Of a DNA stretch of 29,510 nt, positions 6,158 to 27,504 are shown in pieces. Each line of letters starts with the position of its first letter. Position 1 is the stretch's first letter. Both the position numbers and the translations under genes were made by a program. The DNA comes from an uncultured Oligoflexia bacterium (lineage in GTDB: Bacteria > Bdellovibrionota > UBA1018 > CAZQUK01), in the NCBI GenBank assembly GCA_964596435.1, contig CAZQUK010000004.1, positions 1-29,510 of the forward strand, written 5' to 3'. The notes beneath the pieces are model-generated. The model was not told the origin of the DNA. It ran no database searches and saw nothing but the letters and a program-made list of their open reading frames with translations.

Positions 6158-6203
6158 TAAATAAAACCCTCCAGCAGTTGCAAATCCGGTACCGAAATAA
6201 TAA

Positions 6204-8915
6204 TTAATCTGAAAGTTCTGGGGTTATCCATTCAATTTCGTATGCCTCAACAATGTCCCCCGGTTTAATGTCATTATAGTTTTCAAGACCAATTCCGCAT
6301 TCATATCCGTTTGAAACTTCTTTTGTGTCGTCCTTAAAACGCTTAAGAGATGACATTTTGCCTTCATAAATTACACGGCTGTCTCTAAGTAGTCTCACGT
6401 CTGCACCACGTATGATTTTTCCATCAATAACTGATGAACCACCAATTGTACCAATTTTGGGCACGATAAATGTTTGCCTGATTTCGGCCCGACCAAGAAA
6501 CTTTTCAACTTTCTTTTTATCAAGAAGTCCGGTCATGGAATTTTTAATATCATCAAAAAGTTCATAAATGATGGTATATGTTTTTATTTCGATGTGCTCT
6601 GAGGCGGCAATTTGTCGGGCCTTAGTGTCGGGCCTGACATTAAAGCCGATAATAATTGCTTCTGAAGCACTGGCCAAAATAACATCACTTTCTGAAATTC
6701 CACCAGGAGCTGCAAGAATCACATTAATTTTTACTTTGTCAGTAGAAATCTTAACGAGGTTATCTTTAATGGCCTCAACGGAGCCAAAAACATCAGCCTT
6801 AAGAATCACTTTTAGTTCCTTGATATTTCCTGCCTGGATTTTTGCAAAAATATTATCCAACTGAATTTTGCCTTCTATTTCTGACTTGGTTCTTGCCACG
6901 TCTTCACGGCTCTTGATGATTTTTCTGGCATCTGCGTCATTTGCAATATTGTCAAATTTATCACCGGCGTTGGGTGTGGTTTCAAAACCTGAAACTTCAA
7001 CAGCTATTCCCGGTTTTGCCTCTTTTACGGTTTTGCCCCTATCGTCGTTCATTAATTTAACTTTGGCAAAACTTGTACCACAAACCAAAAAATCATTTCT
7101 GCGAAGTGTTCCTTTAAGAACTAAAACACTAACAACCGGACCTCGGCCTTTAACGATTTTAGATTCAAGAACAACACCACTTGCGCGCAATGTTGGATCT
7201 GATTTTAGTTCAAGGATTTCAGCTTGCAAAGAAATTGCCTCTAAAAGTTTATCAATGCCAGTTTGTTTTTTTGCTGAGACTTCAAGAAATTGAGTTTCAC
7301 CACCCCAGCTTTCCGGAAGTAGACCAAGTTCTGAAAGATTTTGTTTGATTTTTTCTGGATTTGCGCCCGGCAGATCCATTTTATTTATTGCAACAATAAT
7401 TGGTACTTTTGCGGCCCTGGCGTGATCAATGGCTTCTCTAGTTTGTGGCATAGGACCATCGTCTGCGGCAACTACAAGAACAACTATATCCGTCACATTT
7501 GCACCTCTGGCACGCATGGCAGTAAAAGCAGCGTGGCCAGGGGTATCTATAAAGGTTATTTCGTTACCATCTTTTGTAATTGTATAAGCACCAATGTGTT
7601 GTGTAATTCCGCCTGCTTCTTTATCAACAACGTTTGATTTTCTTATGACATCAAGTAGTGATGTTTTTCCGTGATCAACATGTCCCATTACCGTTACAAT
7701 TGGTGGCCTGGGTTTTTCGTTCTTTTCGTTAGTATTTTCTTCTGCCAGAATTGTTTCTTCCTTGAAGGCAACATTTCTTACTTCAAAACCAAACTCATTA
7801 GCAATAAGCGATGCAGTTTCAAAATCAACTTCCTGGTTTATTGTGGCCATTTGCCCCATACCCATAAGCTTTTTAATAAGTTCCTGCGGCTTAACTTTTA
7901 AATTATTGGCTAAATCCTGGATTGTGACGTTATCAAAAACCTCAACAATCCGTTTTATGGCTTTAGGGGTAGTGATTTTAGTCTTTTTAATTTCTTTTCC
8001 TAACGGGATTTTCTTCTTCTTGGGGAGGAAAACAACTTCCTTTTTCTGATAATCAGCAAATTTCACATCTTCGGGTCTAAGTTCGGTGTTCTTTCCTGTG
8101 CGTTTTTTTGCTTTTTCCTCTTCGGCCATTAGATCCAGGGCCTGTTTGTTCATTTTAATTATTCTAAAACCATCATCTTTTTCGCCATCTGTTGTTGGTT
8201 TTAGAGATTTTTTTGGCTTTTCTTTAGACTTGCTTTCAGATGGAGGAATAATTGTGTTTATTGGTGGTGCTACGGATTCTACAATTTTCAGGAATTTTTT
8301 ATTAGAATCTTCTGGTGTGGCCGCAGTTTCAATAATTTTCTCAACTTCAGTTGTTTGTTCCCGTGTAACTTTCCCGGTGGTTTCTTCACTGGGCCTTTCT
8401 ATTTCCCCAAGCACTTGCGTGGCTTCTATTTCCGGCTCATGGGTGCTTTCTGGCGCCTGTGTTGAAATTATCGGAGCAGAAGTCGTTTGTGGTTGCTCGA
8501 TAATCTGTTCCTTATTGGCAGTTGCATCAGTGGATTTTTCAATACTTGCCGGGGCAACTGTCTCTACCATTCCGTCTGCTTTTACTCTTCTTCTAATAAT
8601 GGTTGGACCGGATTTAATTTCGGGAGTCACCTCTTCTTCAGCTTTTGGGCTTACGTCTGCTTTTTTTGTGTGCTTTCTGGATATAGTTGCTTTTTTAGCA
8701 CTTGTTTCTTTTTTGCTTTCGGTCTTTTTTGTTGAGGTCTTCTTTTTGCTTTTAAAAGATTTAAGAGTAATTTCCACCTGTTCAGGAGTGAGTGTGCTCA
8801 TATGACTTTTTACTTTGATATCAAGATCCTTGAGTTTGCCTAATAAAGAAATAGAGTCGATATCTAAATCTTTTGCTAGCTCGTAAACCTTTTGGGGTTC
8901 TGTGGTTTTTGTCAT
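6204..8915 (-). CDS. infB: Translation initiation factor IF-2
   Basis: IF2_N (KVYELAKDL), G-domain GHVDHGKTS / DTPGH / NKMD, C-terminal GYECGI. Confidence 0.98.
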
Positions 8916-8957
8916 AAGCGATTACCTTTTGCTCCGAATGTTTTCCGCATTTTTTGT

Positions 8958-10391
8958 CTATTTATCATTCTTATCATTATTGTTGTTTACCTGGTCAGCC
9001 TCTTCCGAATTGGCCTGTTTAAACATTTCTTTAAGTCGTTCTTCTGCGAGAGTTTTAGCATCTTTTTTGAGTTCAGGTCCTGCCGAGAACTGTCCTTTTT
9101 CGTCGTCAGACACATCTTCGGGACCTTTTATTGCATCGCCAACTTTTTCAACAATGGCTTTTGCATTTTCGCTAAGTTTTTTTGCATCTTCTTCTGAGGT
9201 AAATCCTGGTATTTTCTGGAGTGCTTCAATTTTTGCATTTGCAACGTTATGCACATTAAGAAAACCAGCTTGAAGTATTGCCTGCGCGATTGTTTCATTA
9301 ATACCATCAAGGTGCTGAAGGTTAAAAACTGCTTCTTGAGTTCTTTTTTGAAGTTTCGATTTTGAAATAATATCAAGACGCCAGCCCGTTAGTTGTGCAG
9401 CTAATCTGACGTTTTGACCTTTTCTGCCGATTGCAAGAGAAAGCTGATCGTCTTCTACCATTATTTCCATCGATTTATTGCGTTCATCAAGCCTAATTGA
9501 TGAAATCTCGGCTGGTGATAAAGATGACTGTACAAACATTACTGGGTTATCCGACCATGGAACTATGTCGATTTTTTCACCCTTAAGTTCTTGAATTACG
9601 CTTTGTACACGGATTCCTTTCATTCCAACACATGCGCCAACTGGATCCACATCCTTGTCTTTTGAAAATACGGCAATTTTTGAACGTGCCCCGGCCTCTC
9701 TGGAGCAGCCTTTTATTTCAATTAACTCCTCTCTGATTTCCGGAACTTCTATTTCAAAAAGTTTGATTACATATTTTGGTGATGAACGGGTTAAATAAAT
9801 CTGTGGCCCTCTTGTCGTTGAAACCACATCTTCTAGGAAGGCTTGAACTCTATCACCTGGTTTTATAACTTCACCAGGAATTGCTTGGGAGCGTGGTAAA
9901 AGAGCATCTGTTTTTCCAAGATCAATTACAATATTGCCCCTCTCCATTCGGCGTGCGATGCCTGTTATGAGATCGCCTTTTCTGTGAATAAATTCATTAA
10001 ATATTATTTCGCGTTCTGCATCCCTGACTTTTTGAAAAATTATTTGTTTTGCGGTCTGAGCATCTATTCGGCCAAAATTTGGTGTTTCAACTTTAATACC
10101 AATTTCATCTCCGATCTCAACATCAGGATCAAGCTCTCTTGCTTCTTCGATTTTTATTTCCTCAAGGGGTTCAAGCATGTCATCATCGCTATCAACAACC
10201 TTCTTAAAAAGGTAAAGATCTACTTCGCCTGAATCTTCACTGTAGTGGGCCTCCATTACGGCAAATTGGCCATATTTTTTCTGGGCAGCCGCTATAATGG
10301 CTTGTTCAAGTGCACTTACTATAATTTCTTTTTTTATTCCCCGATCTTTTCCAACTGATTCAATGACTCTTGTCAGTTCTGATAGTTTCAT
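8958..10391 (-). CDS. nusA: Transcription termination/antitermination factor NusA
   Basis: NTD, S1, KH domains (DPVGACVGMKG, AIGRKGQNVRLA) and one HhH/AR-like C-terminal region. Confidence 0.98.
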   Translation of the reverse strand: MKLSELTRVIESVGKDRGIKKEIIVSALEQAIIAAAQKKYGQFAVMEAHYSEDSGEVDLYLFKKVVDSDDDMLEPLEEIKIEEARELDPDVEIGDEIGIKVETPNFGRIDAQTAKQIIFQKVRDAEREIIFNEFIHRKGDLITGIARRMERGNIVIDLGKTDALLPRSQAIPGEVIKPGDRVQAFLEDVVSTTRGPQIYLTRSSPKYVIKLFEIEVPEIREELIEIKGCSREAGARSKIAVFSKDKDVDPVGACVGMKGIRVQSVIQELKGEKIDIVPWSDNPVMFVQSSLSPAEISSIRLDERNKSMEIMVEDDQLSLAIGRKGQNVRLAAQLTGWRLDIISKSKLQKRTQEAVFNLQHLDGINETIAQAILQAGFLNVHNVANAKIEALQKIPGFTSEEDAKKLSENAKAIVEKVGDAIKGPEDVSDDEKGQFSAGPELKKDAKTLAEERLKEMFKQANSEEADQVNNNNDKNDK

Positions 10392-10428
10392 CTTTTTTGT
10401 CCTTTCATAAAAAATTATTCCTAATGTT

Positions 10429-11031
10429 TTATGTTACCTGTAACGCTGGTTCCAGATTTGCCTTGGACACTAATTCGAATGGAATTTTGATATCCGGTAA
10501 TTCTGTCTCAGTGTTTTTTTTCTGTTTTTTTGATGCAGAGTGACTGCTATCTACCCTAAAAAGAATGTTTGTTGATGTGTCATCAAGTCCAAGAATAATT
10601 CCAATAAAATTTTTCTGCTTTGGGTTTTTATTGTGGTAAAAATTGTTTTGAATTTCCGTTGAGGTCAGGGGTCTGAATAGTTGAATACGGGCGCGCTGGT
10701 TTTTGAAACGATCAAAGTCTTTAAGTTTTCTTAGTGGTCTTTCAATACCTGGAGAGGAAACTTCAAGATCATAGCTTCCGTGAAAGATTTCATCCACTTC
10801 GGGTATTATATCAAGAAGGGTATCTAGTGTTTGTGAAACCTTAACACAATCTTCGCTACCTATTGGCGACGAGAGTGGATTAAGGTGGTCAATAAAGAGT
10901 CTAAGGGTTTTTTTATGGTGAGAAATGATTTCAATATATACAAGCTCGTAACCATGGTCCTTAAGGACCGATTCAATTGAGTCCTCAACTTTTGAAACTA
11001 CTGCTTTTTTGTTTTTCTCAATATCCTTCAT
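10429..11031 (-). CDS. rimP: Ribosome maturation factor RimP
   Basis: LRLFID, EDCVKVS and YDLEVSSPGIERPL motifs; first gene of the nusA-infB operon. Confidence 0.95.
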   Translation of the reverse strand: MKDIEKNKKAVVSKVEDSIESVLKDHGYELVYIEIISHHKKTLRLFIDHLNPLSSPIGSEDCVKVSQTLDTLLDIIPEVDEIFHGSYDLEVSSPGIERPLRKLKDFDRFKNQRARIQLFRPLTSTEIQNNFYHNKNPKQKNFIGIILGLDDTSTNILFRVDSSHSASKKQKKNTETELPDIKIPFELVSKANLEPALQVT

Positions 11032-14886: not shown

Positions 14887-16698
14887 ATGTCAAACGCAAA
14901 AGATATAAATGTAATTATTGCAACTGATTGTGGCAGCACAACAACAAAGGCAATTTTAATTGAAAGAATTGGAAATGAATTTCGTCAAACTTTTCGTGGC
15001 GAGGCACCAACTACTGTTGAGGCCCCGTTTGAAGATGTTACAAAAGGTGTTCTGAATTCCATTCAGGAAGTTGAAGAACTTTCCGGGCGCAAGATGCTTG
15101 ATGGCGAAAAAATAATAATGGAAACAAGTAGTGAGAATGGTAAAAAAATTGGCGTTGATGCTTACATTTCAACAAGTAGTGCAGGTGGTGGACTTCAAAT
15201 GATGGTAGCCGGTGCTGTAAAGTCAATGACCGCAGAAAGCGCTCAGCGCGCAGCTCTAGGTGCTGGTGCAATTGTTATGGATGTTCTTGCTTCAAATGAT
15301 AAGCGCCTACCGCACCAGAAAATTGAAAGGATCCGTCAATTGCGACCGGATATGATTTTATTATCAGGTGGTACAGATGGCGGTACAATTTCACATGTTG
15401 TTGAGCTTGCAGAATATATTGCCGCCGCAGATCCAAAACCGAGACTTGGCATTAGTTATAAACTCCCAGTATTATACGCCGGAAACGTTGATGCTCGTCA
15501 GAATATTAAGGATGTTTTGCAGGAAAAAATGGAACTTGTTATCACAGATAACTTAAGACCAACACTTGAGCGCGAAAACTTCATGCCTGCCAGACAGGAA
15601 ATTCAGACACTGTTTCTGGAACACGTTATGGCGCAGGCACCTGGCTATAAAAAATTAATTGAAATGACAACAACTGACATTATGCCAACACCTGCAGCCG
15701 TTGGTCTAATTATGCAAATCATTGCAAAAAAACATGGAATAAATTTAATGGGGGTCGATATTGGCGGTGCCACAACGGACGTGTTTTCTGTTTTCGGAGA
15801 GGTTTTCAATAGAACAGTTAGCGCAAATTATGGCATGTCATACAGTATTTCAAACGTGCTTGCAGACGCAGGCCTTAAACGAGTAATGCGTTGGCTTTCT
15901 TTTGACGTTAACGAAAAGGAAGTACGCGACAGAATTAAAAATAAAATGATACGTCCAACCACTATTCCACAAACACTTGATGCACTTAAGTTAGAACAAG
16001 GAATAGCAAGAGAGGCGCTTCGTTTGTCTTTTGAACAACATAAGCTGCTTGCTGTGAGCCTTAAGGGTGTGCAACAGGAAAGAACAATTGCTGAGGCTTT
16101 TACCCAGTCAGAATCCGGTCAATCCATTGTTAACATGATGGAGCTTGATATGATTGTCGGTAGTGGTGGAGTTCTTTCGCACGCGCCAAGAAGAAACCAG
16201 TCAATGTCGATGATGATTGATTCTTTCCAACCTGAGGGCATTACATTTATTTCGGTTGATAGTATTTTTATGATGCCACATCTTGGTGTGCTTACAAATG
16301 TTAACAAACAAGCTGCAACAGAAGTATTTGAAAAAGACTGTATGGTTTATCTTGGAACCTGTGTTGCTCCTGTTGGTTCTGCAAAGTTTGGCACTAAGGT
16401 TATGGATTATAAAATTAAAATGGGACAAACCAGTATTAACGAAACTATTAATTTTGGGGAATTAAAATTTTATAATTTGAGCTTAAACGAAACTGCAGAA
16501 ATAGAACTTTGCCCAATGCGCGGATTTGATGTTGGGCGTGGAAAAGGAAAAACTCATAAAGGAGTTGTAAAGGGCGGTGTTGTTGGCCTTGTAATTGATG
16601 CCAGGGGGCGGCCAATAAAATTCCCGGATGATGAAGCGCACAGAAAAGAAAAAGTTATTGCCTGGAACAAGGAAATGAACCTTTATAGTGAATATTAA
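14887..16698 (+). CDS. glmL: GlmL/MutL (glutamate mutase L)-like ASKHA-fold ATPase with C-terminal extension
   Basis: ATDCGSTTTKA (phosphate 1), SSAGGGL, LLSGGTDGG, GVDIGGATTDVFS (phosphate 2), VGSGGVL (adenosine). Family call from motif recall; function here unknown. Confidence 0.85.
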   Translation: MSNAKDINVIIATDCGSTTTKAILIERIGNEFRQTFRGEAPTTVEAPFEDVTKGVLNSIQEVEELSGRKMLDGEKIIMETSSENGKKIGVDAYISTSSAGGGLQMMVAGAVKSMTAESAQRAALGAGAIVMDVLASNDKRLPHQKIERIRQLRPDMILLSGGTDGGTISHVVELAEYIAAADPKPRLGISYKLPVLYAGNVDARQNIKDVLQEKMELVITDNLRPTLERENFMPARQEIQTLFLEHVMAQAPGYKKLIEMTTTDIMPTPAAVGLIMQIIAKKHGINLMGVDIGGATTDVFSVFGEVFNRTVSANYGMSYSISNVLADAGLKRVMRWLSFDVNEKEVRDRIKNKMIRPTTIPQTLDALKLEQGIAREALRLSFEQHKLLAVSLKGVQQERTIAEAFTQSESGQSIVNMMELDMIVGSGGVLSHAPRRNQSMSMMIDSFQPEGITFISVDSIFMMPHLGVLTNVNKQAATEVFEKDCMVYLGTCVAPVGSAKFGTKVMDYKIKMGQTSINETINFGELKFYNLSLNETAEIELCPMRGFDVGRGKGKTHKGVVKGGVVGLVIDARGRPIKFPDDEAHRKEKVIAWNKEMNLYSEY

Positions 16699-16721
16699 AA
16701 AAATTTTTGGAGGAAACTAAA

Positions 16722-17852
16722 ATGGCACATGCCTACACACCTGGTTTAAGAGTAGCTGAAAAAACCAAGATAAAAAAATGCAGAATATTACCGCTTAAGG
16801 GCAATGTAATAAAAAAAGTTGGTGACGTGGTACTGCGCAATGATGTGGTTGCAAGAACAGAACTTCCCGGCGGAATTTCCACAATGAACGTTGTGAATAT
16901 GCTGGGTATTGTACCAAATGAGATTGATAACTTTATGCTTAAAAAGGTTGGTGAAAAAATTGAAAAAGATGAGGTTATTGCGGAAACCAAATCATTTATA
17001 AAATTTCTGCGCGCAAGGGTACAATCATCAATAACCGGGACAATTGAAGCAATCTCCCCGGTAACCGGGCAAGTACTGCTTCGCGAACCACCACTTCCGG
17101 TTGAGGTAATGGCCTACATTAACGGAAAAGTTGTTGAAGTTATAGATGGCGAGGGTGTGGAAATTGAAACAGAGGCAACTTTTATACAGGGAATTTTTGG
17201 TGTTGGTGGTGAGGTATGGGGATCAATGAAGTTTGCAGTTTCCGGCCCTGATGAGCGCTTAACTTTGGATAAATTAAAACCAGAGTTTAAGGATTCAATT
17301 GTAGTGGGTGGTTCTTTTGCTGGATTTGATGTTATAAAAAAAGCAATAGCTCTTGGAGTACGTGGCTTGATTGTATCTGGTATTCATGATGAAGATTTAA
17401 GAAAAATCCTTGGCTACGATCTAGGTGTTGCCATAACAGGTACAGAAAATATCGGATTAACACTTGTTTTAACCGAAGGGTTTGGCGAAATTACAATGGC
17501 CGAAAGGACCTACCGGACACTTAAGTCCAGAGAAGGAAGTGTTGCGTCGATTTCCGGTGCTACGCAAATCAGAGCTGGTGTGATACGGCCCGAAATAATT
17601 ATTCCATTCGATGAGGGTAAAGTACAAAAGCAGGAAAAAGATCAAAGCAAACAGCCCCATAGTATGCAAATTGGTGATCAGATTAGAGTTATTCGCGATC
17701 CTTATTTTGGAATAATTGGTAAAGTACATGCCCTGCCGTCTGAACTTAGAAAAATTGAATCAGAAACGCGGGCCAGGATTTTAGAAGTGGAATTTCCTGA
17801 CGGAAAGATTGCCGTTATTCCACGCGCAAATATAGAACTTATTGAAGAATAA
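16722..17852 (+). CDS. Conserved hypothetical partner of the GlmL-like protein: barrel-sandwich hybrid repeats, central alpha/beta domain, C-terminal KOW/SH3-like domain
   Basis: GGAGG RBS at 16709-16713 favours ATG 16722. KKVGEKIEKDEVIAE...QSSITGTIEAI resembles RnfC_N/NqrA_N; MQIGDQIRVIRDPYFGIIGKV is KOW-like. Confidence 0.8.
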   Translation: MAHAYTPGLRVAEKTKIKKCRILPLKGNVIKKVGDVVLRNDVVARTELPGGISTMNVVNMLGIVPNEIDNFMLKKVGEKIEKDEVIAETKSFIKFLRARVQSSITGTIEAISPVTGQVLLREPPLPVEVMAYINGKVVEVIDGEGVEIETEATFIQGIFGVGGEVWGSMKFAVSGPDERLTLDKLKPEFKDSIVVGGSFAGFDVIKKAIALGVRGLIVSGIHDEDLRKILGYDLGVAITGTENIGLTLVLTEGFGEITMAERTYRTLKSREGSVASISGATQIRAGVIRPEIIIPFDEGKVQKQEKDQSKQPHSMQIGDQIRVIRDPYFGIIGKVHALPSELRKIESETRARILEVEFPDGKIAVIPRANIELIEE

Positions 17853-17876
17853 GATCACAAATACAGTGTTTATATA

Positions 17877-18806
17877 GTGCAAAACAAAATAATATTTGAA
17901 ATAAAAAATAATTTAAGATTTTTATTATCTATAGTGCTTGTGGTTCTTTATCCGCTTTTTATAGCACTTATACAAATTGATTTTCGTGGTCTTGAGCATG
18001 CGCTGGTGCTTGCGTTTTTTTTAAGTGTACTAACATGTTTATGGCTTGTGTTTTCAGAAGTGGGGATTTTAAGAGTACTGGTGTCCATTGGTTTGGCACT
18101 TCTAGTTGTTTTTAATTATGATGCTACAGGTGCTTTAATCTCAAACTTAAAACTTGAGCACCTTGATTTGATTCTGGCAGATGTCGACAGAACGCTTTGG
18201 GGGTGGCTTTTCGCAAAAGGACAGATTTCATTTTGGTTAGATGGAAATTCCTGGTTGAATCCAAGCACTATGCCTGGAAAAATTCTTACAGAGATTTTTC
18301 AAATTGCTTATAGTAGCTATTATTTTTGGAGCCTGGGGTTGGTTTTTGCTCTTTGTGCGAAAACCTTATTTGGAGCAAAAAAGCAGGAAAGTTGGTCTGC
18401 GCTTAAACTTGTAATGAGTAGTTATTCCGTGGCTTATATTTTTAACTATATCGGATATATTTTGGTTCCTGCAGTTGGGCCAAGGCTAGTTTTTGAAAAT
18501 TATTACAAACATGCGCTTCAGGGTCTTTGGTTAACAATACCATTTAGAGAAATTATTATGAATAACCAAAGTACACTTGAGGATTGCTTTCCAAGCGGGC
18601 ACACGGCCATTAGCTGGTTAACTGCTATTATGTTTTTGCGTTTTTTTCCAAAAGTGGGCCGCATTGCGGTCGTTGCCGCAATTTTAATTACAATGGCAAC
18701 TTTGTATTTAAGGTATCACTACATTGTTGATTTAATCGCAGCCCTACCTTTAATTGTTCTGGCACTTTTGTGGGGTTTTGTGAAGGTGCCACAAATGGAT
18801 GAATAG
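17877..18806 (+). CDS. PAP2-superfamily membrane phosphatase/phosphotransferase (AUR1/IPT1-like subfamily)
   Basis: Multi-TM protein with PAVGPR, DCFPSGHT and YLRYHYIVD motifs. Confidence 0.85.
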   Translation: MQNKIIFEIKNNLRFLLSIVLVVLYPLFIALIQIDFRGLEHALVLAFFLSVLTCLWLVFSEVGILRVLVSIGLALLVVFNYDATGALISNLKLEHLDLILADVDRTLWGWLFAKGQISFWLDGNSWLNPSTMPGKILTEIFQIAYSSYYFWSLGLVFALCAKTLFGAKKQESWSALKLVMSSYSVAYIFNYIGYILVPAVGPRLVFENYYKHALQGLWLTIPFREIIMNNQSTLEDCFPSGHTAISWLTAIMFLRFFPKVGRIAVVAAILITMATLYLRYHYIVDLIAALPLIVLALLWGFVKVPQMDE

Positions 18807-18822
18807 TATTTGTTTTAGATCA

Positions 18823-19581
18823 TTACAAAAAAGTATCAATAAAAACTTTTGCGTCTTTTGGAATATTGTTTTGAAAATTTTGTGTAGTCCAGACAAAAAA
18901 TTGTTTAATTTCCTGTGTCTGTTGTGAATTTGGCTTTGTGTTAAGAATGTCAGCGCCTTGAATGTGATATGGGCTGAAATCATCATTTGTTAAATATATT
19001 TCAAGGAATTTTCGTTTTGCATTGCTTCTGATAACAAACTCATCGGTTGAAAATTCGAAATTGCATATATGGCCGTCAGCGTTTTTGCCTTTTGTATACC
19101 AGGTAATCAGTTTTGTATTATTATCACTTATATAAACCTCTTTTTTAAATCCGGCGTCGTCTTGATTAAAAAGTTTAGAAGAAAGTTTTTTTAGTGAAGA
19201 GCCTGTGATCACAGGCATTAATGTTTGAATGTAGTCTTTTTTAATGAGCCAGCTTGGAAAATATATATCAAACCCAATATCTGAAGATTTATCTTTTTTT
19301 CTTATATGTGCGCATCTGGCCTTTAAATGCAAATTATATTGTTGTAACTGCAAGGTTAAATTGGCAATAGATTCTTTGCCAAGCTCTTTTGGGTCTTTTA
19401 CATTTAACCTTAAGCCACCAATAGAAAAATCAAGTACTGAGCAGGAGTAGTTTGCGTTATTGGCAATTAGTGAAACGTTAAGCGGGTAAGTATTACATGG
19501 TTTGTAACGTATTGATTTGCGCCTCTCAAGGCTCTTGATTTCCGATTTTTCAAAATTTAGTATTTTTTTAAATAGTCCCAT
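18823..19581 (-). CDS. PilZ domain protein (c-di-GMP receptor candidate)
   Basis: RRKSIR (RxxxR) and DFSIGG (DxSxxG) motifs, followed by an uncharacterised C-terminal domain. Confidence 0.85.
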   Translation of the reverse strand: MGLFKKILNFEKSEIKSLERRKSIRYKPCNTYPLNVSLIANNANYSCSVLDFSIGGLRLNVKDPKELGKESIANLTLQLQQYNLHLKARCAHIRKKDKSSDIGFDIYFPSWLIKKDYIQTLMPVITGSSLKKLSSKLFNQDDAGFKKEVYISDNNTKLITWYTKGKNADGHICNFEFSTDEFVIRSNAKRKFLEIYLTNDDFSPYHIQGADILNTKPNSQQTQEIKQFFVWTTQNFQNNIPKDAKVFIDTFL

Positions 19582-19587
19582 TTATTA

Positions 19588-19615
19588 ATTTTAACAAAAG
19601 CTATAGGTTCTTGAA
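19588..19615 (-). promoter_or_regulatory. Possible promoter giving a leaderless PilZ mRNA
   Basis: Minus strand TTCAAG-N16-TAAAAT with extended TG; the -10 box ends 6 nt before the ATG; no SD sequence. Confidence 0.3.
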
Positions 19616-19761
19616 ACTAATTACAGTAAAAAAACATCAAAAATACTAAGCAAATTGTTATTAATTCGAATCAAATGACGCGTTAAATAAATCGAGTTGA
19701 GTTTTAGCACACTGCATCTTGTGCGCATTGGTGTGGTATATAATAGTGTGTATTAATACAG

Positions 19762-20571
19762 TTAAAAATTAATTTCCCCACAACTTATAAGCCGAGCTTT
19801 TCCTGAAAGATAGGCAGCTGCTTTTGGGCCTTCCCATTCAACTATAACTTTGCCACCGGGTTGAATAACTGTGACCGGCGAAATAATATTTTTTATTAAA
19901 ATTGATGCTATGGCACTGGCACAGGCACCTGTGCCGCATGCTTTAGTGAAGCCCACACCTCTTTCCCAGGTTTCAATTGAAATAGAGTTGTTATTTAAAA
20001 CTTTTACAAAATCAATGTTTGTTTTTTTATGAAAGTTTTTGTGGTTTTCAATTATTAGAGTGCACTTTTTAAGGAAATTTGTGTTTGTTTCGTTTTCAAA
20101 AAAAACTGCATGCGGAACACCCGTATTAATAAAAACATAAGCAAATAAATTAGAATTCAGTGCAAGCGTACTTGTGATACTTTGTTTATCGTATTTTGGT
20201 TTTCCAATACCGACGCGTATTGTGTTATCAGATAACATGTCTGATTTTATACGGCCAGAAAGAGTTTCGGTAATAAATTCTTTTTTTCCTTCTACAAACT
20301 GACTAAGGTAAAGAGTGGATGCAATAATTCCATTTCCACACATTTCTGCAATTGTTCCATCGGCATTAATAATACCAAGTTTAGCGTTTGAGCCTTTGGT
20401 CTTTGGTTTTTGAAGAATTAATATCTGGTCTGCACCAACGCCATCTGTTTTGTTACAAATTGATTTTGTTACTATGGGATCAATTTTGAACGAATTTGCA
20501 AAATAAGTATTGTCAATCAAAATGAATTCGTTGCCATAAACATCAAGTTTTGTGTATTTAAGTAAAGCCAT
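19762..20571 (-). CDS. dapF: Diaminopimelate epimerase
   Basis: GNEF, GADQIL, NADGTIAEMCGNG, TGVPH and TWERGVGFTKACGTGA; both catalytic Cys present; N-terminus divergent. Confidence 0.88.
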   Translation of the reverse strand: MALLKYTKLDVYGNEFILIDNTYFANSFKIDPIVTKSICNKTDGVGADQILILQKPKTKGSNAKLGIINADGTIAEMCGNGIIASTLYLSQFVEGKKEFITETLSGRIKSDMLSDNTIRVGIGKPKYDKQSITSTLALNSNLFAYVFINTGVPHAVFFENETNTNFLKKCTLIIENHKNFHKKTNIDFVKVLNNNSISIETWERGVGFTKACGTGACASAIASILIKNIISPVTVIQPGGKVIVEWEGPKAAAYLSGKARLISCGEINF

Positions 20572-20589
20572 GAAAATCCACTTATATCC

Positions 20590-20868
20590 TTAATTTTCCA
20601 GTTCTTCAATTTTATTCAGCAGGTAGTCAACATACCTTTTGTCTTCCATGGCTTCTCTGAATGCTTGCAGTTTTTCCCCACTTATTAAAATAGTTAAAAA
20701 TGGTTCAAAAAAAAGCATGGATTGGCTGCCTAAATAATGAAGTGGCCTTGTGCTTTCTAAAAACATTACCGCAATAACAGATAAGCCTTTTTTTACGATA
20801 AAACCGGCAATTTTATCTAATATTTCAGTTTTTTTTGTATCAAGTATGTCGCACTCGGGGTTATTCAT
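20590..20868 (-). CDS. Small conserved hypothetical protein of the DUF6754-like operon
   Basis: 92 aa; FLESTRPLHYLGSQSMLFFEPF motif; overlaps upstream gene by 8 nt. Confidence 0.75.
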   Translation of the reverse strand: MNNPECDILDTKKTEILDKIAGFIVKKGLSVIAVMFLESTRPLHYLGSQSMLFFEPFLTILISGEKLQAFREAMEDKRYVDYLLNKIEELEN

Positions 20869-21265
20869 TTTTGGTCCTTGCTATTAAAAAATCATGGATT
20901 TCATTTTTAAGATTACTATTAAATATATATATGTATTCGCAAGCTTTATTGGATTTTTTAATAGGTAATATGCCGTCACTTCCAAGAGTGAAAAGCTTGT
21001 AATCAGAGTAATAAAAACATTTTTCTGTTAATAATATTTTTATTAAATAACGATCTTCAAAAAACAAATAGCGAGAAGGAACTAAAAAGTTGACAACGGG
21101 CATGGCCATCACTAAAAGTGCAATAATTGATAAAATAATTGAACCCAAAAGATATTGTGCAAGAAATGTAACAAATAAAATAACCAAAACCGAAAAAACA
21201 CCTTTTTTCCAGTAATGAGTTAAAGGAAAAGAGCTTACTTCGTAAAGTGGCACATCATCCGGCAT
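20861..21265 (-). CDS. Small 2-TM protein with C-terminal beta-rich (PH-like) soluble domain
   Basis: Two hydrophobic helices then FLVPSRYLFFEDRYLIK; coupled to neighbours; very AT-rich. Confidence 0.65.
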   Translation of the reverse strand: MPDDVPLYEVSSFPLTHYWKKGVFSVLVILFVTFLAQYLLGSIILSIIALLVMAMPVVNFLVPSRYLFFEDRYLIKILLTEKCFYYSDYKLFTLGSDGILPIKKSNKACEYIYIFNSNLKNEIHDFLIARTKNE

Positions 21266-21283
21266 ATATTATATAGTTTTGTA

Positions 21284-21898
21284 TTAAGTAATAACACCAA
21301 GCCAGTCTTTTAATAAATACAACACCCTTCCAATTAAAAGTGAAATACGCGCCATGACTGTATAACCAAAGCTTGCACCAAAACTAATCATCAGAAGTGT
21401 TGATCCAAACTTTGTAAAATGGCCAATAACGCCTTTATGCGGTATTGAAAAATAAAAATACAAAAGACAGGCAAATGTTCCTACCAAAATAATTAAGCTG
21501 CTTAAAATGCTAAACCAGCCTCCACCAAGTGGAACGTTTACTGTTGCTTGCACCTGCGTAAGTAAATAAGTATCAATCATGGTAGGGATGCCATAACCAC
21601 TAAAACCCACAAGAAAAGCAAGTGGCCAGAAGCTTATCCAACCAAGTTTGCTTGAAAACCTAAAGAGCATTAAAATTGCTAAAATCGCCGGAATAATAAC
21701 ACTATACTCGCCCTTCGTTAAGGGTTCAAAAAGTTTTGGTAGTAGAACCTCGTTCCATGTTAAGCAAATCAAGTAACCGACAGAAATACCAATAAAGATA
21801 TGTTCCGCAAGTCTATAAAGAGGGTTTTCTTTCCAAAGGTATGTAAAAATTGCGATAGTTAATATTGCGCCTATCCAAATCCAGGGATCTGTACTCAT
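21284..21898 (-). CDS. Uncharacterised ~6-TM membrane protein with internal repeat
   Basis: 204 aa hydrophobic; KENPLYRLAEHIFIGISVGY and MISFGASFGYTVMARISLLIGR motifs; 1-nt gap to upstream gene. Confidence 0.85.
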   Translation of the reverse strand: MSTDPWIWIGAILTIAIFTYLWKENPLYRLAEHIFIGISVGYLICLTWNEVLLPKLFEPLTKGEYSVIIPAILAILMLFRFSSKLGWISFWPLAFLVGFSGYGIPTMIDTYLLTQVQATVNVPLGGGWFSILSSLIILVGTFACLLYFYFSIPHKGVIGHFTKFGSTLLMISFGASFGYTVMARISLLIGRVLYLLKDWLGVIT

Positions 21899-21899
21899 G

Positions 21900-22760
21900 T
21901 TAGAACCCCTTTCTTTCTGTTGCTTCTATATGCCTACGTATATAAAAAAGGATGTTTCCAATGACTATAAAAATAATAATTATAATGTGGCCCCAGTTTT
22001 GAGAGGCCATGCCTCGCATTGCGTTTCCAATAAAACCAGTTAAATATTCATATTCCGCGGCAGCTTTCATGCCCGCAAGAAGCCCCTTCATTTGTCCGGC
22101 CTGAAGATATGGAAAATATTCTGTTGCAGATACTGCTGTAACACCCGCAACGTAGTTAAATTTATATTTGTTAACACCATAAAGTATATATGCTTGCGCA
22201 AGTTTTGTTCCGGTAATGCATATTACAACATGAAAATCATCATAGTTTTGAATACCCTTAAGGACAGGAATATCTGCAATTGGGATCCCCCTAAAATCTT
22301 TGGGGTAGGATAATCTTAGGTCGTCCCCGAGGTTAAGTAGAACTATGTCGTATTGTGGTAGGTAGCCCAGAAAAACATAATCCTGGCCGTTAACTTTACC
22401 AAATTCTTTGGCCATATCATCCATAATGGTTGCGGCCAGAGCGGTACCGTTTGGTAAAAAAGTAAGCCCCACAACCTTTACGTTTTGCGAAAACGCTTGC
22501 CTTAACATAGCTTTTGCCATTGGTTGAAGTTCGGCTAGTGTTGAAGGGTCAAAATCAAAACCAATTAATATAGGTTTCCTTTTTTTTGCGGCCTCTTCAA
22601 CAAGTTCATAAGCTGTTTTTACCCACTTGGTTGATTTTATACTTACAACAGGTTTTAGAAAGAAAGGCAGACTAACTGCCAGGAACATGAAAATATAAAC
22701 AACCCTTCTGTCTAGGTTGATTATTTTGGTAACCAAAGAATTTGTTTTTTTATTATCCAT
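21900..22760 (-). CDS. Uncharacterised protein: TM, alpha/beta domain, TM (apparent paralog of the DUF6754-like domain)
   Basis: 286 aa; FDFDPSTLAELQPM, YVFLGY and GLLAGMKAAAEYE motifs; terminal hydrophobic helices. Confidence 0.85.
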   Translation of the reverse strand: MDNKKTNSLVTKIINLDRRVVYIFMFLAVSLPFFLKPVVSIKSTKWVKTAYELVEEAAKKRKPILIGFDFDPSTLAELQPMAKAMLRQAFSQNVKVVGLTFLPNGTALAATIMDDMAKEFGKVNGQDYVFLGYLPQYDIVLLNLGDDLRLSYPKDFRGIPIADIPVLKGIQNYDDFHVVICITGTKLAQAYILYGVNKYKFNYVAGVTAVSATEYFPYLQAGQMKGLLAGMKAAAEYEYLTGFIGNAMRGMASQNWGHIIIIIFIVIGNILFYIRRHIEATERKGF

Positions 22761-22782
22761 ATACTTTGCCTTTTTGACCTAA

Positions 22783-23418
22783 TTATTTTCCAACACCACT
22801 GAAAACTGATTTATCAATTCCAAGAATAATTTTAAGTGCCGTTGCAACCGATCCTATTGCAATACCAATAAGGATGGCTCGTTGTGCGGCAACATTAGGA
22901 TAGTCCATTATCCAAGCCGAAAATTTAGGAATCAAAGGTGATATAGTTTCTCCGAAAGGAACCTGTGCAAGCATTACGGTAATTGCAGCAAACAAGAGTA
23001 AACCTGCGGAGAAAGATTTTAACCTAAAACTTCTAAATGCGGCAGATGCGATATAAAAAGCCAGAAGTGAGAACATTGTGGATTCAAGTGGTGCCATAAC
23101 GTTCATAAAAATATCATTAAAAAGTGTTCCGGGGTTCATGCCTGTAATAAAACCAACTATTGTCATTATGGCCATAGAAATAATTGTGATTAAGCAGTAA
23201 AACCTATTTGGGTCAGCTTTGTTCATGGCTTTTTTGTAATAGGTTTTAATCATACTTATTACACCAACAGCCATTGCACCACCACCGATGATGATTAACC
23301 AATCGGAATATGTTATCCATAAAAAGTTCATGGATTTGTGTGGAACAAAATAAGCAGCAAAAGTAAAAATACCTACCACTAAGGTTATTAAAAAAGGTAC
23401 CGTCTTTTTAAAAAACAT
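22783..23418 (-). CDS. Uncharacterised ~6-TM membrane protein
   Basis: 211 aa hydrophobic; PLESTMFSLLAFYIASAAFRSFR and PNVAAQRAILIG motifs; TAATG stop/start overlap with upstream gene. Confidence 0.85.
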   Translation of the reverse strand: MFFKKTVPFLITLVVGIFTFAAYFVPHKSMNFLWITYSDWLIIIGGGAMAVGVISMIKTYYKKAMNKADPNRFYCLITIISMAIMTIVGFITGMNPGTLFNDIFMNVMAPLESTMFSLLAFYIASAAFRSFRLKSFSAGLLLFAAITVMLAQVPFGETISPLIPKFSAWIMDYPNVAAQRAILIGIAIGSVATALKIILGIDKSVFSGVGK

Positions 23419-24593
23419 TAATTAGCTCCTCCAGTTAAAAATGTATCCATACCTTCTACACCAAAAAGTTTAAGCAAGAAGCAAATAAGCAGCGCAATCA
23501 TGACCACAAGTTTTACGTAGTCTTGCCCCTTTAAGCCACCAAGCAGGCTTTTATCATCTCCCATGTAGGCTCCAGCAGCGTATAACTCCTCACCAATAAG
23601 TGTGTAGTCGCATGCAACAATAAAAAATGGTATTTGACTCACAGAATCGGTTCCTGCAATTTGTATTGCGCCTGTCATTGCACCAGATTCTGCCAAAATA
23701 AGACTTTCAGCCATAAACCAGCCAAGAAAAAAGTTTGCAGCTGGTTTTTCTCTGGCCATAAGACCCGCAACACCTGAAGCATATGCAAACTGACGGCTTG
23801 TTAGATAATATACATCATCTGCTCTATAAGCGTCAGGACGCCCCATTTTTAGGTATGAGTTTTTAACAACTTCATCAACTACTGAATAAACAATTGGGTC
23901 AAAATTTGGGATAATCATGCGTGAATTATATTCAGCAATTGTTTCAGAAACTTTTGATAAAATTGAAATTGAAGCCAGTGTTGCAATATCCGTAATTGTA
24001 CTTATTCCTGGTACAAAAATGCATGGCTTTCCCATTTCTGTTGCACGTCCAACGGCCTCCTCAATTGCTTTAACTCCGGGCAGTGGGCGGATATATAGTT
24101 TTCGTCCTGTTTTTGCTATCTGTATAAACACTAGGATTATAAACATAGAGATAAACGAAAAGACTAAAGTGAAAATTTTTGTGGAATTGAACCACTGTGG
24201 TTTGGAAACAAAAGGACCAAACTGGTTTGTCTCAAAGATTGTTTTTTCGTTTTCATCCTTAAACACAAGTTTGTAAAAGTATGGAGTTTTGTCTATTACG
24301 TCATTTTTATCTGTGTATTTATTATTTGAAATGTCGAGTCTTTTAATTTCAAGAAATTTAGTGTCGGCCGTGGTTTTGCGGAACACAAAAATATTCAGAC
24401 TTTTTTCTATTATGCTCTGATCTTCAATGTTCCATGAAATATCAATCGAAGCACCCTTGTCGTTTGGTGTGTCTTTTCCTTCAAGAGTGATTTTAGTATC
24501 CGCTCTTGAGAAAACAGAAAACAAGATCAAAAAAACCACGCCTATTAAATTAACAACTCGAAATTTATGGGATTTTTTCATGATGAAAACCAT
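23418..24593 (-). CDS. Signal peptide, Fn3-like domain, TM, DUF6754-like domain, TM
   Basis: DTPNDKGASIDISW...YFYKL (Fn3-like); IRPLPGVKAIEEAVGRATEMG and LIGEELYAAGAY. DUF number is from recall. Alternative start ATG 24581. Confidence 0.82.
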   Translation of the reverse strand: MVFIMKKSHKFRVVNLIGVVFLILFSVFSRADTKITLEGKDTPNDKGASIDISWNIEDQSIIEKSLNIFVFRKTTADTKFLEIKRLDISNNKYTDKNDVIDKTPYFYKLVFKDENEKTIFETNQFGPFVSKPQWFNSTKIFTLVFSFISMFIILVFIQIAKTGRKLYIRPLPGVKAIEEAVGRATEMGKPCIFVPGISTITDIATLASISILSKVSETIAEYNSRMIIPNFDPIVYSVVDEVVKNSYLKMGRPDAYRADDVYYLTSRQFAYASGVAGLMAREKPAANFFLGWFMAESLILAESGAMTGAIQIAGTDSVSQIPFFIVACDYTLIGEELYAAGAYMGDDKSLLGGLKGQDYVKLVVMIALLICFLLKLFGVEGMDTFLTGGAN

Positions 24594-24776: not shown

Positions 24777-25613
24777 TCAGGCCTTAATCTGATACTTGAT
24801 CCAGTTTGCGAAATCTTGTTCCCTAATTTTATCATCCAAAATGTGTTTATCTATTCCAAGTTTCCACGCAAGATCAGTGCGAGAGTGATTTTTAGCCAAA
24901 GTTTCCATGTCTTTTGAATATTGAATCAGATCTTCGCGGGTTTTAAAAAATCCCCCTTGGATTAGTTTTTCTTCGCGTGCCAAGATTAATCTGGCCATGT
25001 CGTAAAGGTTATATTCAGGATGATATTGCGTTGCCCAAAAAGTGCCTTTTTTGAATTTAATCTCAGCAGCCTGAATATATGAATGGTCATTTGACGCAAG
25101 CACTACAGAATTTGGAGGCAGTTTTGTAACTTCATCATCGTGGGACTCAAAATGGTCAAAAACTTCGGGCTTCCCTTCCATAAAAGGATGCGATTTTCCG
25201 GCGTTTGTTAAGCGTATCTTTCTTCCAATACCCATTTCGCGTCCCCTTGGGTTTATTTTAACCTCTCCTCCAGCGGCAAAAGCGGCCATTTGTAACCCCC
25301 AGCAACTGCCAATGCTTGGAATTCCAAGTTCAAAAATCTTTTTTTGTAGATCAACTTGTGCCTGAATTTCAGAAATGTGACAGTGATAAACAGTACAACT
25401 GCAACCGGTTAAAATTATGCCCGTGTAGTTTTCTAAAGCAGCACCTTCTGGAAACTTGTGGCCTGGATCCATGGGGTGAAGTACATCATATTTGGCGCCG
25501 GGTAAATATTTGGTTAAAATATCTGCATACATTTTATATGCATGCTTCACATCAAAGTTATCAAATTCATCCCGTTTGCTTTTTGGATAACCATCAATAA
25601 TTAAAAATTGCAT
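24777..25613 (-). CDS. Class I glutamine amidotransferase-like protein (standalone)
   Basis: Nucleophile elbow GSCWGLQ and QYHPE complete the Cys-His-Glu triad; AGGAG RBS favours ATG 25613 over the track start at 25649. Confidence 0.88.
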   Translation of the reverse strand: MQFLIIDGYPKSKRDEFDNFDVKHAYKMYADILTKYLPGAKYDVLHPMDPGHKFPEGAALENYTGIILTGCSCTVYHCHISEIQAQVDLQKKIFELGIPSIGSCWGLQMAAFAAGGEVKINPRGREMGIGRKIRLTNAGKSHPFMEGKPEVFDHFESHDDEVTKLPPNSVVLASNDHSYIQAAEIKFKKGTFWATQYHPEYNLYDMARLILAREEKLIQGGFFKTREDLIQYSKDMETLAKNHSRTDLAWKLGIDKHILDDKIREQDFANWIKYQIKA

Positions 25614-25626
25614 AAGCGCTCCTAAG

Positions 25627-27504
25627 TTAAATTGTCCATTCAAGTCCAAGTTCTTTTAGTTTCCCATTTGATGGGTTTCCTGACTTTATATCCCAACCCA
25701 TCAAATCATAATAATTATCGAGCATATTTAAGTATGATTCTTTATCAACTCCGCGCCCTTTTGCCGGACCATCGGGAATGGGATCGTGAATTTTATCAGG
25801 TAAAAGGTCGCTGCTTCTTGTAAAACCTCTTCTTGTATTAACTTGTCGCATAAGGTTTATGCGCCTTTCGCCAACCTTCATAAGTTCAAAAAAAGTTATT
25901 TCCATTCCAGTTGTAAAATATAAAAGGTCCTCAAGGTCCTTGTATTTAAAAAGGTTACCAGGACCCCAGCAAAACATACAAAGGCCAAGTGTATCAAGTA
26001 CACTATAAAAATATTGAGAGTAAACGGAGGCCCTGACTTTGTTAAGGTTCATGCTAGGTGCCGTATCCTGACCCAATATACCAAGACCGAAACTCGCTTC
26101 ACTTCCGCCGGCAAGGAGCCAGTCATGTTCGCATGACATATGGTCAGCACCAAACGGTACAACACCATACATTAGGGCTTGAGATGGTTTTACCTGTGGA
26201 ACATGTACCGCAAACCCGTGTCCCTTAACGTGGACCGCGTACTTTCTTGTTTTTTCTCCAAAATGATTTATTGTTTTTTCAAAACCATCGGCCAGTATGT
26301 TTCCAATGCCATCTCGGGCGCAAGTTTTTTCTATGCACCACAAAAGTCCTTTGGCGTTTGCAAATTTTACATTTTCATTTCCAATGTCTTTTGAATTTAA
26401 AATACCTTTTTCAACGCACTCACAAAGATACGAAACAAGTCCACCCATTGTTAATGTATCAATTCCGTAGTTGTTACAAAGTTCATTGGCCTTTGCAACA
26501 GCAACTGGATCCGTAATATCAAGGTTTGAACCAAGAAGTCCTAAGGTTTCAAATTCAGGTCCACCAATTTTATCTGTAACTTTGTATGGCTTTTCTGCCT
26601 TAACTTTTCTTCTGCATCCCACAATACAGGCAAAACAAGTTGTTTTTCCGGCACCCATGGTTTTCTCAACATTTTCACCATCAAGTTTTTTGTAATCTTC
26701 ATGGAAGCTTCTTGTGTAGTTGTGTGTTGCAAGATTTCCGGCTTCGCATTGGAAGCCCAAAACGCCAGGTGTTCCAAGTTTTTTTAATGTGGATGGAAAA
26801 TCAGCTCCAGGTAAACGTTCAGTAGCAAGTTTTGCAAGATTTTTAAGTCCCTCGGGATAAGCAAAATTAATTTTTTTATCTCCCTTTACTACCACGGCAC
26901 GCAGGTTTTTACTTCCAAACACAGCGCCCATTCCACAGCGTCCGGCAACATTATTTAAATCTCCCATTAGACACGCGAATCTTACCTGTTTTTCACCGGC
27001 AGGGCCACACTGAATAATACTAATGTTTTTATCGCCATGCTTATTAATTAAGGCTTCATGTGCATCAATTACACTTTTTCCATAAATATCTGAGGCGTCT
27101 TGTATTTGGACGTTTTCATTATCAACAAAAATATAAACAGGCTTTTTAGCTTTTCCTTTAATTACTATTGCATCAAATCCGGATTTTTTTATTATTGGTC
27201 CAATACTGCCGCCAAGCTGACTATCGCCAATGGCATTAGTTTCCGGCGAAACAGCTGTGACCGCACATCTACTAACGCCTGTTACAGATGCACCGGTTGT
27301 AATACCTGGTGCAATGGTAATAATGTTTTCTTCACTTAGCGGGTCAAAATTACATTTCGTTTCCTTTAATAAAAAAAAGCTCCCCATTGCCGCCCCCCCC
27401 ATATAGGTGCGGTAAAAGCTTTTATCTGGCTTTTGTATTTCTGTTTTACCTGTGCTTAAGTTTACTCTAAGAATTGCACCGTTAAATCCAAAATTCTCTG
27501 ACAT
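25627..27504 (-). CDS. aor: Aldehyde:ferredoxin oxidoreductase (tungstopterin AOR family)
   Basis: GRCGMGAVFGSKNLRAV, CFACIVGC (4Fe-4S), GPEFET, CNNYGIDT and LGLCMF; 625 aa; AGGAG RBS. Confidence 0.92.
   Translation of the reverse strand: MSENFGFNGAILRVNLSTGKTEIQKPDKSFYRTYMGGAAMGSFFLLKETKCNFDPLSEENIITIAPGITTGASVTGVSRCAVTAVSPETNAIGDSQLGGSIGPIIKKSGFDAIVIKGKAKKPVYIFVDNENVQIQDASDIYGKSVIDAHEALINKHGDKNISIIQCGPAGEKQVRFACLMGDLNNVAGRCGMGAVFGSKNLRAVVVKGDKKINFAYPEGLKNLAKLATERLPGADFPSTLKKLGTPGVLGFQCEAGNLATHNYTRSFHEDYKKLDGENVEKTMGAGKTTCFACIVGCRRKVKAEKPYKVTDKIGGPEFETLGLLGSNLDITDPVAVAKANELCNNYGIDTLTMGGLVSYLCECVEKGILNSKDIGNENVKFANAKGLLWCIEKTCARDGIGNILADGFEKTINHFGEKTRKYAVHVKGHGFAVHVPQVKPSQALMYGVVPFGADHMSCEHDWLLAGGSEASFGLGILGQDTAPSMNLNKVRASVYSQYFYSVLDTLGLCMFCWGPGNLFKYKDLEDLLYFTTGMEITFFELMKVGERRINLMRQVNTRRGFTRSSDLLPDKIHDPIPDGPAKGRGVDKESYLNMLDNYYDLMGWDIKSGNPSNGKLKELGLEWTI

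Follow-up and report, generated by a model that had tools for sequence, protein, structure and literature searches.

A set of seven conserved bacterial genes is described here from a 29,510-nucleotide stretch of groundwater metagenome DNA (positions 1 to 29,510 of contig CAZQUK010000004.1, the whole of which is called the window below). The stretch belongs to an uncultured Oligoflexia bacterium represented by a 411-contig, 90%-complete metagenome-assembled genome (MAG; GCA_964596435.1). Three of the genes encode a GlmL-like protein of the ASKHA superfamily, a partner protein and a small protein termed F, and the other four (A, B, C and D) encode a membrane cassette that begins with a DUF6754 protein. 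The system is widespread in bacteria, and six of the seven conserved proteins match no characterised family. The arrangement of its genes and their pattern across phyla are hard to explain without a functional tie between the two halves. We propose that the GlmL-like protein, its partner and F would constitute a single cytoplasmic module working with the inner-membrane cassette A-B-C-D. By analogy with known uptake systems, we consider the chances about evenly balanced that this module is an ASKHA-driven energiser shared by several uptake-type cassettes.

Linkage of the module and the cassette

The DUF6754 profile matched at least 592 species-genome stretches, and linkage was counted in the 80 loci that were kept. 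Subunit A is present in all 80, B in 75, C in 67 and D in 66; missing B, C and D genes fall mostly at short or truncated contigs, and the order A-B-C-D is essentially constant. An earlier note, made from the letters of the window, had suggested that the GlmL-like pair (GlmL-like protein and partner) and the membrane families cluster in other lineages, and had named a failure to co-occur or cluster elsewhere as grounds for giving up the idea. Both points were examined and the link held: 17 of the 80 species loci have GlmL and partner no further than 10 kb from DUF6754. These loci are drawn from Gemmatimonadota, Eisenbacteria, Zixibacteria, Ignavibacteria, Coatesbacteria, Poribacteria, Latescibacterota, Desulfuromonas sp. 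SDB (a MAG label) and Bdellovibrionales. The usual order in these loci is F-GlmL-partner-A-B-C-D. All eight genes run in one direction in locus L009 (GlmL-partner-A-B-C-D-E-F), the pair abuts F convergently in L008, and the arrangement is convergent in L013 and divergent in L014.

A partner ortholog, full-length and with an E-value of 1e-99 or better, was also found in all 39 examined DUF6754 genomes that lack the pair near the sampled cassette, and coordinate comparison places the pair beside another cassette copy in six of them. Within the phylum of the Zixibacteria-labelled MAGs, DUF6754 occurs in 151 of 151 sampled genomes, and 149 of them have exactly one copy of the partner. The window itself holds all seven conserved genes, with 31-79% identity to the conserved sets and the A-B-C-D order intact. 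The eight-component system of the earlier note thus stands as to the link between pair and cassette, but its conserved membership is seven (F, GlmL, partner and A-D), the eighth protein, E, being limited to one clade.

A Pfam tally of 52 same-strand neighbours gave no dominant family. At four WOR-3 and related loci a Wzi-like capsule-assembly gene lies directly after D (Table 1), which is a weak hint either of a link to surface polysaccharide or of shared locus ancestry.

One module and several cassettes

The two halves differ in copy number, a feature absent from the earlier note. DUF6754 is present in 1-6 copies per genome in the first genome set and in 2-10, mostly 5, in the second, and in both sets the partner, where present, has exactly one strong copy. 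Two or three complete A-B-C-D cassettes stand in tandem in L020, L028, L038, L056, L063, L068, L070, L072, L079 and L080; in L028 they directly follow F-GlmL-partner in an 11-gene operon (Table 1). With a single module copy against 2-10 cassettes, the module would most likely act as a shared engine for several of them.

Cassettes of one locus have diverged unevenly. Median identity between them is 38% for the Fn3 part of A, 41% for C, 47% for B, 52% for D and 61% for the cytoplasmic domain of A, so that the outward parts differ most and the cytoplasmic domain of A least. This is the expected pattern if several cassettes recognise different things outside the cell but present one conserved face to which a single module docks. 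The window genome has one cassette and one module.

Proteins of the proposed cytoplasmic module

The GlmL-like protein matches PF13941 (MutL) over profile positions 1-450 (E 8e-128, 427.5 bits, above the gathering score) and carries a C-terminal extension of about 120 residues. Its nucleotide-binding motifs (DCGSTTTKA, SSAGGGLQMMVAG, LSGGTDGG, VDIGGATTDVF and GSGGVLSHAP) are at least 95% conserved in 19 orthologs, and the full-length match with intact phosphate and adenosine motifs places it in the ASKHA superfamily; Pfam also gives a weak match to Hydantoinase_A. It belongs to PF13941 but is not GlmL proper: it scores 234.8 against a cut-off of 475 bits for the GlmL equivalog NF040745, 215 against 600 for NF040744 and 174 against 204 for TIGR01319. 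The likeness to GlmL/MutL and to the GlmL-related protein of ornithine degradation (PF13941; NF040745, NF040744, TIGR01319) is therefore one of Pfam family, ASKHA fold and nucleotide-binding motifs, whereas the window protein reaches roughly half the NCBIfam cut-offs, adds the C-terminal extension, and is of a type always paired with the 376-residue partner and F, co-occurring with membrane cassettes and not with mutases. The window contains no genes for a GlmS/GlmE B12 glutamate mutase, and the glutamate mutase E chain (PF06368) was not found in the 90%-complete genome, where the GlmL-like gene is single-copy.

The partner adjoins the GlmL-like gene wherever flanks were retrieved. It is 48-70% identical across phyla, with 70 invariant columns, and its AlphaFold model (mean confidence, pLDDT, 86.7) comprises barrel-sandwich beta domains, a central alpha/beta domain and a KOW-like C-terminal barrel. 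The last of these is backed by Foldseek, which found KOW domains as the only matches of the model in the PDB. The N-terminal peptide MAHAYTPGL is conserved and of low pLDDT, and its His3 is near-invariant; together with the invariant Cys328-Asp329 pair of A, this histidine is a candidate catalytic or docking residue.

In several paralogs, MutL and partner-like domains are joined on single chains of 876-973 residues, and such fusions indicate that the GlmL-like protein and the partner act together. Three are listed in Table 1 (959-973 residues, in L103, L104 and L105), and their genomes also hold the separate pair. The fusions in L103 and L105 adjoin a histidine ammonia-lyase gene and an RND efflux operon.

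Protein F mostly has no clear transmembrane (TM) segment and conserves E38, S39, P42, L43, G47 and Q49. The order F-GlmL-partner recurs in L023, L024, L026, L028, L033, L048, L049, L064, L067 and L090 and in the Brocadiia locus L010, and since F lies just upstream of GlmL in most phyla we assign it to the cytoplasmic module.

Proteins of the membrane cassette

Subunit A is a DUF6754 protein (PF20539; E 1e-108, 362.8 bits, profile positions 2-254 of 257, above the gathering score). It consists of a signal or anchor segment, an extracytoplasmic Fn3 domain, a TM segment, the five-to-six-stranded alpha/beta DUF6754 domain and a further TM segment. The Fn3-like domain, seen previously in the translated sequence, was confirmed in two ways: a profile search of the PDB matched titin Fn3 (1e-8), and Foldseek matched the AlphaFold model (pLDDT 85) with a root-mean-square deviation of 2.4-2.8 Å over about 100 residues. 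Sixty-eight A sequences share 48 invariant columns, including GRATEMG, the TGAIQIAGTD region and the C328-D329 pair, and the DUF6754 domain is the most conserved part of the protein; lysine-plus-arginine (K+R) counts taken across the family suggest that it is cytoplasmic. Matches of this domain to SIS/RpiR-like folds were distrusted, being weak (TM-score 0.4).

Long variants of A, of 704-935 residues, occur in L107-L110 (Table 1), and their surplus length is extracellular. Pfam detects Fn3 in three of the four, but not in the 935-residue protein of L107, and finds no enzyme domain in any of them. The outward part of A looks like a stalk of variable length.

B has six TM segments, an inside N-terminus by K+R bias and conserved R129, R132 and R180; it matches no Pfam family, and its ESM Atlas clusters come from Bacillota, Chloroflexota and WOR-3. 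In C, two TM segments flank an alpha/beta domain of about 210 residues, and K+R bias, by which both termini lie inside, predicts that this domain is outside the cytoplasm. The Atlas model of a C relative resembles the DUF6754 fold (TM-score 0.67). D has five to six TM segments and a conserved C-terminal motif, FGAxFGxTVMxRxSLLIGR. BLASTP and hhalign gave no significant match between A and C or between B and D, and the idea that these proteins are paralogs was rejected. E, with two TM segments, was found in the clade of the window alone (L002, L008, L009, L011 and L012; 4 of the 80 species loci) and is a lineage-specific accessory confined to that Oligoflexia-like clade. Searches of the ESM Atlas with C, the partner and B returned unnamed clusters only, but brought to light the joining of MutL and partner on one chain and the likeness in fold of C to A. 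At the sequence level, the PDB gave nothing but Fn3 matches for the A profile, the partner and the GlmL-like protein.

Possible function

No match that would explain the function was found in Pfam, the PDB, defence-system collections or the literature, and PADLOC assigned none of the eight window proteins to a defence family. Neither an ATP-binding domain of the ABC type (PF00005) nor an ABC permease was matched in Pfam or NCBIfam, and the eight proteins show no homology to EI, HPr or EII of the phosphotransferase system (PTS).

Under the explanation that we favour, ATP would be bound and hydrolysed by the ASKHA protein, and the effect, relayed through the partner, would act on the cytoplasmic domain of A. 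This action would drive a trans-membrane process. Its specificity would be set by the variable outward parts, namely the Fn3 stalk of A together with the alpha/beta domain of C, and E would be a clade-specific extra to the cassette. We infer that the proteins form a physical complex coupled to ATP. The overall architecture put forward in the earlier note, in which a membrane core bears an Fn3 domain on the outside and an ASKHA arm in the cytoplasm, agrees with the predicted topology, as far as hydropathy and K+R bias can tell. The roles suggested there, of transporter, secretion or surface-assembly apparatus and ion pump, are all conjectural. One energiser shared by many cassettes is typical of nutrient uptake, as in energy-coupling factor (ECF) transporters, the PTS and TonB-dependent systems, and on account of this layout the likeliest job of the system would be the uptake or group translocation of a substrate.

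The likeness to these systems concerns the way in which the present one may operate and does not imply membership. In group II ECF transporters, where one EcfAA'T serves many S components, in the PTS, where one EI/HPr serves many EII, and in TonB-ExbBD, which serves many receptors, as here, a single energising module is accompanied by dispersed or tandem cassettes whose outward parts are the most divergent. There is, however, no kinship of sequence or fold, and the eight proteins contain no ABC ATPase, EI/HPr or TonB box. A possible parallel is also offered by ABC importers with a tethered binding protein, given the roughly six TM segments in each of B and D, the outward domain of C and the cytoplasmic coupling domain of A; yet no homology to any ABC component was found, and the candidate ATPase is actin-fold, not RecA-like. 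The partner for its part recalls the N-terminal barrel-sandwich hybrid of RnfC/NqrA (PF13375), through its barrel-sandwich beta domains and a weak RnfC_N match at residues 80-120 (E 7e-4; 20.1, below the gathering score of 25.6). It differs from RnfC/NqrA in lacking iron-sulphur or flavin domains, in the absence of RnfA/B/D/E/G genes and in a fold that matches the PDB at the KOW-like end only, and no other Rnf/Nqr family was matched in the eight proteins.

A bolder form of the proposal can be put forward tentatively, as a possibility that we rate well short of even. The system would be a new class of primary machine, in which an actin-fold ATPase or kinase engine, in place of an ABC, P-type or rotary ATPase, docks in turn on substrate-specific cassettes and energises import or else phosphorylates the incoming substrate, perhaps through a relay that involves partner His3 and A Cys328. 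The candidate residues for such a PTS-like relay are near-invariant in the partner and invariant in A. On this view the system would be an ATP-dependent equivalent of the PTS, and whole phyla such as Zixibacteria and WOR-3 would have it as a core route of uptake.

Several observations weigh against a shared energiser of uptake cassettes. In most genomes, the complete chromosomes G060 and G070 among them, every cassette is far removed from the pair, and the Brocadiia locus L010 has F-GlmL-partner and no cassette within 10 kb. Genomes of one phylum are related, so that the co-occurrence counts suggest more independent observations than there are. The fused MutL-partner paralogs have neither a DUF6754 cassette nearby nor conserved membrane neighbours; they possibly mark a second, different client of the ATPase module, and because of them the module may also serve clients other than the cassette. 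The topology has hydropathy and K+R bias as its sole basis, and B and D show conserved arginines and no recognisable transporter fold. We know of no ASKHA protein that energises a transporter. The literature searched on DUF6754, PF13941 and GlmL-like proteins gave nothing relevant to pairing or function, and no experiment or structure bearing on function was found.

Among other explanations, it is conceivable, if unlikely, that the GlmL-like protein and partner have a chaperone or reactivase function of the kind proposed for GlmL, EutA and DdrA towards B12 enzymes. Subunits A-D would then make up a membrane enzyme or an ion-translocating complex, with the chemistry in the cytoplasmic domain of A, and the pair would see to the loading, repair or assembly of one of its cofactors or subunits. 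Membership of PF13941 is in keeping with this role, and so is the active-site-like appearance of that most conserved domain, with its many invariant charged residues and invariant Cys; one chaperone for several client complexes would also suit the ratio of one module to many cassettes. Yet the glutamate mutase E subunit was not found in the genome, as noted above, and neither cofactor-binding motifs nor iron-sulphur or flavin domains appear. The RnfC_N match is sub-threshold and unaccompanied by Rnf/Nqr subunits, and the conserved carboxylates in the membrane helices of B and D are few, which argues against a cation pump. To our knowledge, moreover, GlmL itself has been put forward as a reactivase without proof.

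It is rather improbable that the system is a cell-envelope or surface-polymer machine, for example for the export or anchoring of a polysaccharide or glycoconjugate, with the Fn3 stalk reaching into the wall and the ATPase powering assembly. Fn3 domains like that of A are found in carbohydrate-active enzymes (pectate lyase, GH66), and the long A variants with several Fn3 repeats are stalk-like. Among the 52 same-strand neighbours, Wzi follows D in four cases and a Wza-like gene in two, but mostly in related WOR-3 genomes and with no dominant neighbour family; the PilZ and PAP2 genes between the units in the window, which might point the same way, are unconserved at that position. Five or more cassettes in a small genome would be unusual for such a machine, and Atlas clusters place the families in single-membrane phyla (Chloroflexota, Bacillota) as well.

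We regard as very doubtful a cytoskeletal or motility device in which the cassette would anchor filaments of the ASKHA protein, formed in the manner of actin, MreB or ParM. Its actin fold, strong conservation and dedicated partner, and the universality of the system in whole phyla, would allow it; but GlmL/MutL proteins group with hydantoinase and oxoprolinase enzymes (compare the weak Hydantoinase_A match) and not with filaments, and multiple divergent cassettes with variable outward domains are ill-suited to a single cytoskeletal anchor. That the two units are unrelated neighbours, or adjacent through an assembly or binning artefact, is scarcely credible in spite of the three unrelated genes between them, their convergent transcription and the 411 contigs of the MAG, since the linkage recurs in four arrangements and many phyla with near-perfect co-occurrence, the housekeeping genes of the contig are most similar to those of same-order relatives, and contigs from two samples tile the region without a credible conflicting joint.

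The locus in the window

The genes of the window and the features of other loci are listed in Table 1. The tight packing of six minus-strand genes (A to F) was confirmed: A and B overlap by one nucleotide (TAATG), the junction on the minus strand reading AATTAATG, the gaps between B and C, C and D, and D and E are of 22, 1 and 18 nucleotides, and E and F overlap by 8. Other details of the initial description were amended. The six-gene run and the two-gene unit are convergent but do not abut, PAP2, PilZ and dapF lying in between, and five of the six proteins (A-E), not four, carry TM segments by hydropathy. The true start of the partner is likely to be 16722, giving 376 residues, and that of A is likely to be 24581.

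Table 1. Positions of the genes and features discussed (window coordinates unless a locus is given)
Feature	Position	Strand	Basis
GlmL-like ASKHA protein, 603 aa	14887-16698	+	Open reading frame, Pfam
Partner protein	16707/16722-17852	+	Open reading frame
PAP2 phosphatase	17877-18806	+	Pfam
PilZ-domain protein	18823-19581	-	Pfam
dapF	19762-20571	-	Pfam
F, small protein, 92 aa	20590-20868	-	Open reading frame
E, two-helix membrane hairpin, 134 aa	20861-21265	-	Open reading frame, hydropathy
D, polytopic membrane protein, 204 aa	21284-21898	-	Open reading frame, hydropathy
C, membrane protein with alpha/beta domain	21900-22760	-	Open reading frame, hydropathy
B, polytopic membrane protein, 211 aa	22783-23418	-	Open reading frame, hydropathy
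A, DUF6754 protein with Fn3	23418-24593	-	Open reading frame, Pfam PF20539
rimP-nusA-infB-rbfA-truB operon	4753-11031	-	
Glutamine amidotransferase-like and aldehyde:ferredoxin oxidoreductase genes	24777-27504	-	
Tandem cassettes directly after F-GlmL-partner, 11-gene operon	L028:9779-17066		
MutL-partner fusion	L103:2803-5691		
MutL-partner fusion	L104:7803-10724	-	
MutL-partner fusion	L105:5671-8550		
Long A variant	L107:1025-3832	-	
Long A variant	L108:1003-3282	-	
Long A variant	L109:1290-3404		
Long A variant	L110:1309-3432		
Wzi-like gene after D	L003:4323-5864		
Wzi-like gene after D	L016:13316-14857		
Wzi-like gene after D	L025:11589-13190		
Wzi-like gene after D	L061:6528-8078		

The dapF gene begins 18 nucleotides past the stop of F and is probably co-transcribed with the six-gene operon in the window genome. 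PAP2, PilZ and dapF are absent from the corresponding position in the relatives L008 and L009 and are not conserved parts of the system. The PilZ domain hints at control of something close by through cyclic di-GMP; adjacency of PilZ or PAP2 to the system is not conserved elsewhere. Just upstream of A lie a class-I glutamine amidotransferase-like gene and one for a tungsten-type aldehyde:ferredoxin oxidoreductase, the former overlapping the end of the latter; both appear unrelated to the system. A scan for promoters and terminators gave background level only, and the GC content is uniform across the window.

Origin of the locus

The rimP-nusA-infB-rbfA-truB operon and gltX mark the contig as chromosomal and of the assigned order. 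NusA is 66-72% identical to that of same-order relatives and 51-53% to that of MAGs labelled Oligoflexia or Bdellovibrionales, and the corresponding values for GltX are 51-55% and 41-46%. The proteins of the system, by contrast, are 63-79% identical to those of the Oligoflexia/Bdellovibrionales-labelled MAGs, and none was found in the same-order relatives: neither DUF6754 nor the partner was detected in 40 of these, nor in 200 genomes of the organism's own phylum. Judged from these identities, both units were probably gained together by horizontal transfer from the lineage of the Oligoflexia/Bdellovibrionales-labelled MAGs and then rearranged; the colinear order in L009 and the convergent one in the window fit an inversion. 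Such apparent joint entry into an otherwise system-free lineage gives independent support to the two halves as a unit. Contigs from the two samples tile the region, and the sole conflicting joint, a 21-nt-side skip in one contig, is taken as spurious.

Significance

All sampled genomes of one phylum carry DUF6754, with some five cassettes apiece. If the proposed explanation is true, many bacterial phyla, most of them uncultured, depend on a kind of membrane machine that has never been described, possibly with a new mode of coupling energy to a membrane process. Its likely motor is at present annotated as a helper of a vitamin-B12 enzyme. Knowledge of the substrate would close a wide gap in the metabolic models for bacteria of sediments and groundwater, and would set right a systematic mis-annotation. 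The window genome, with one engine and one cassette, is a minimal version of the system and offers its simplest form for expression and testing.

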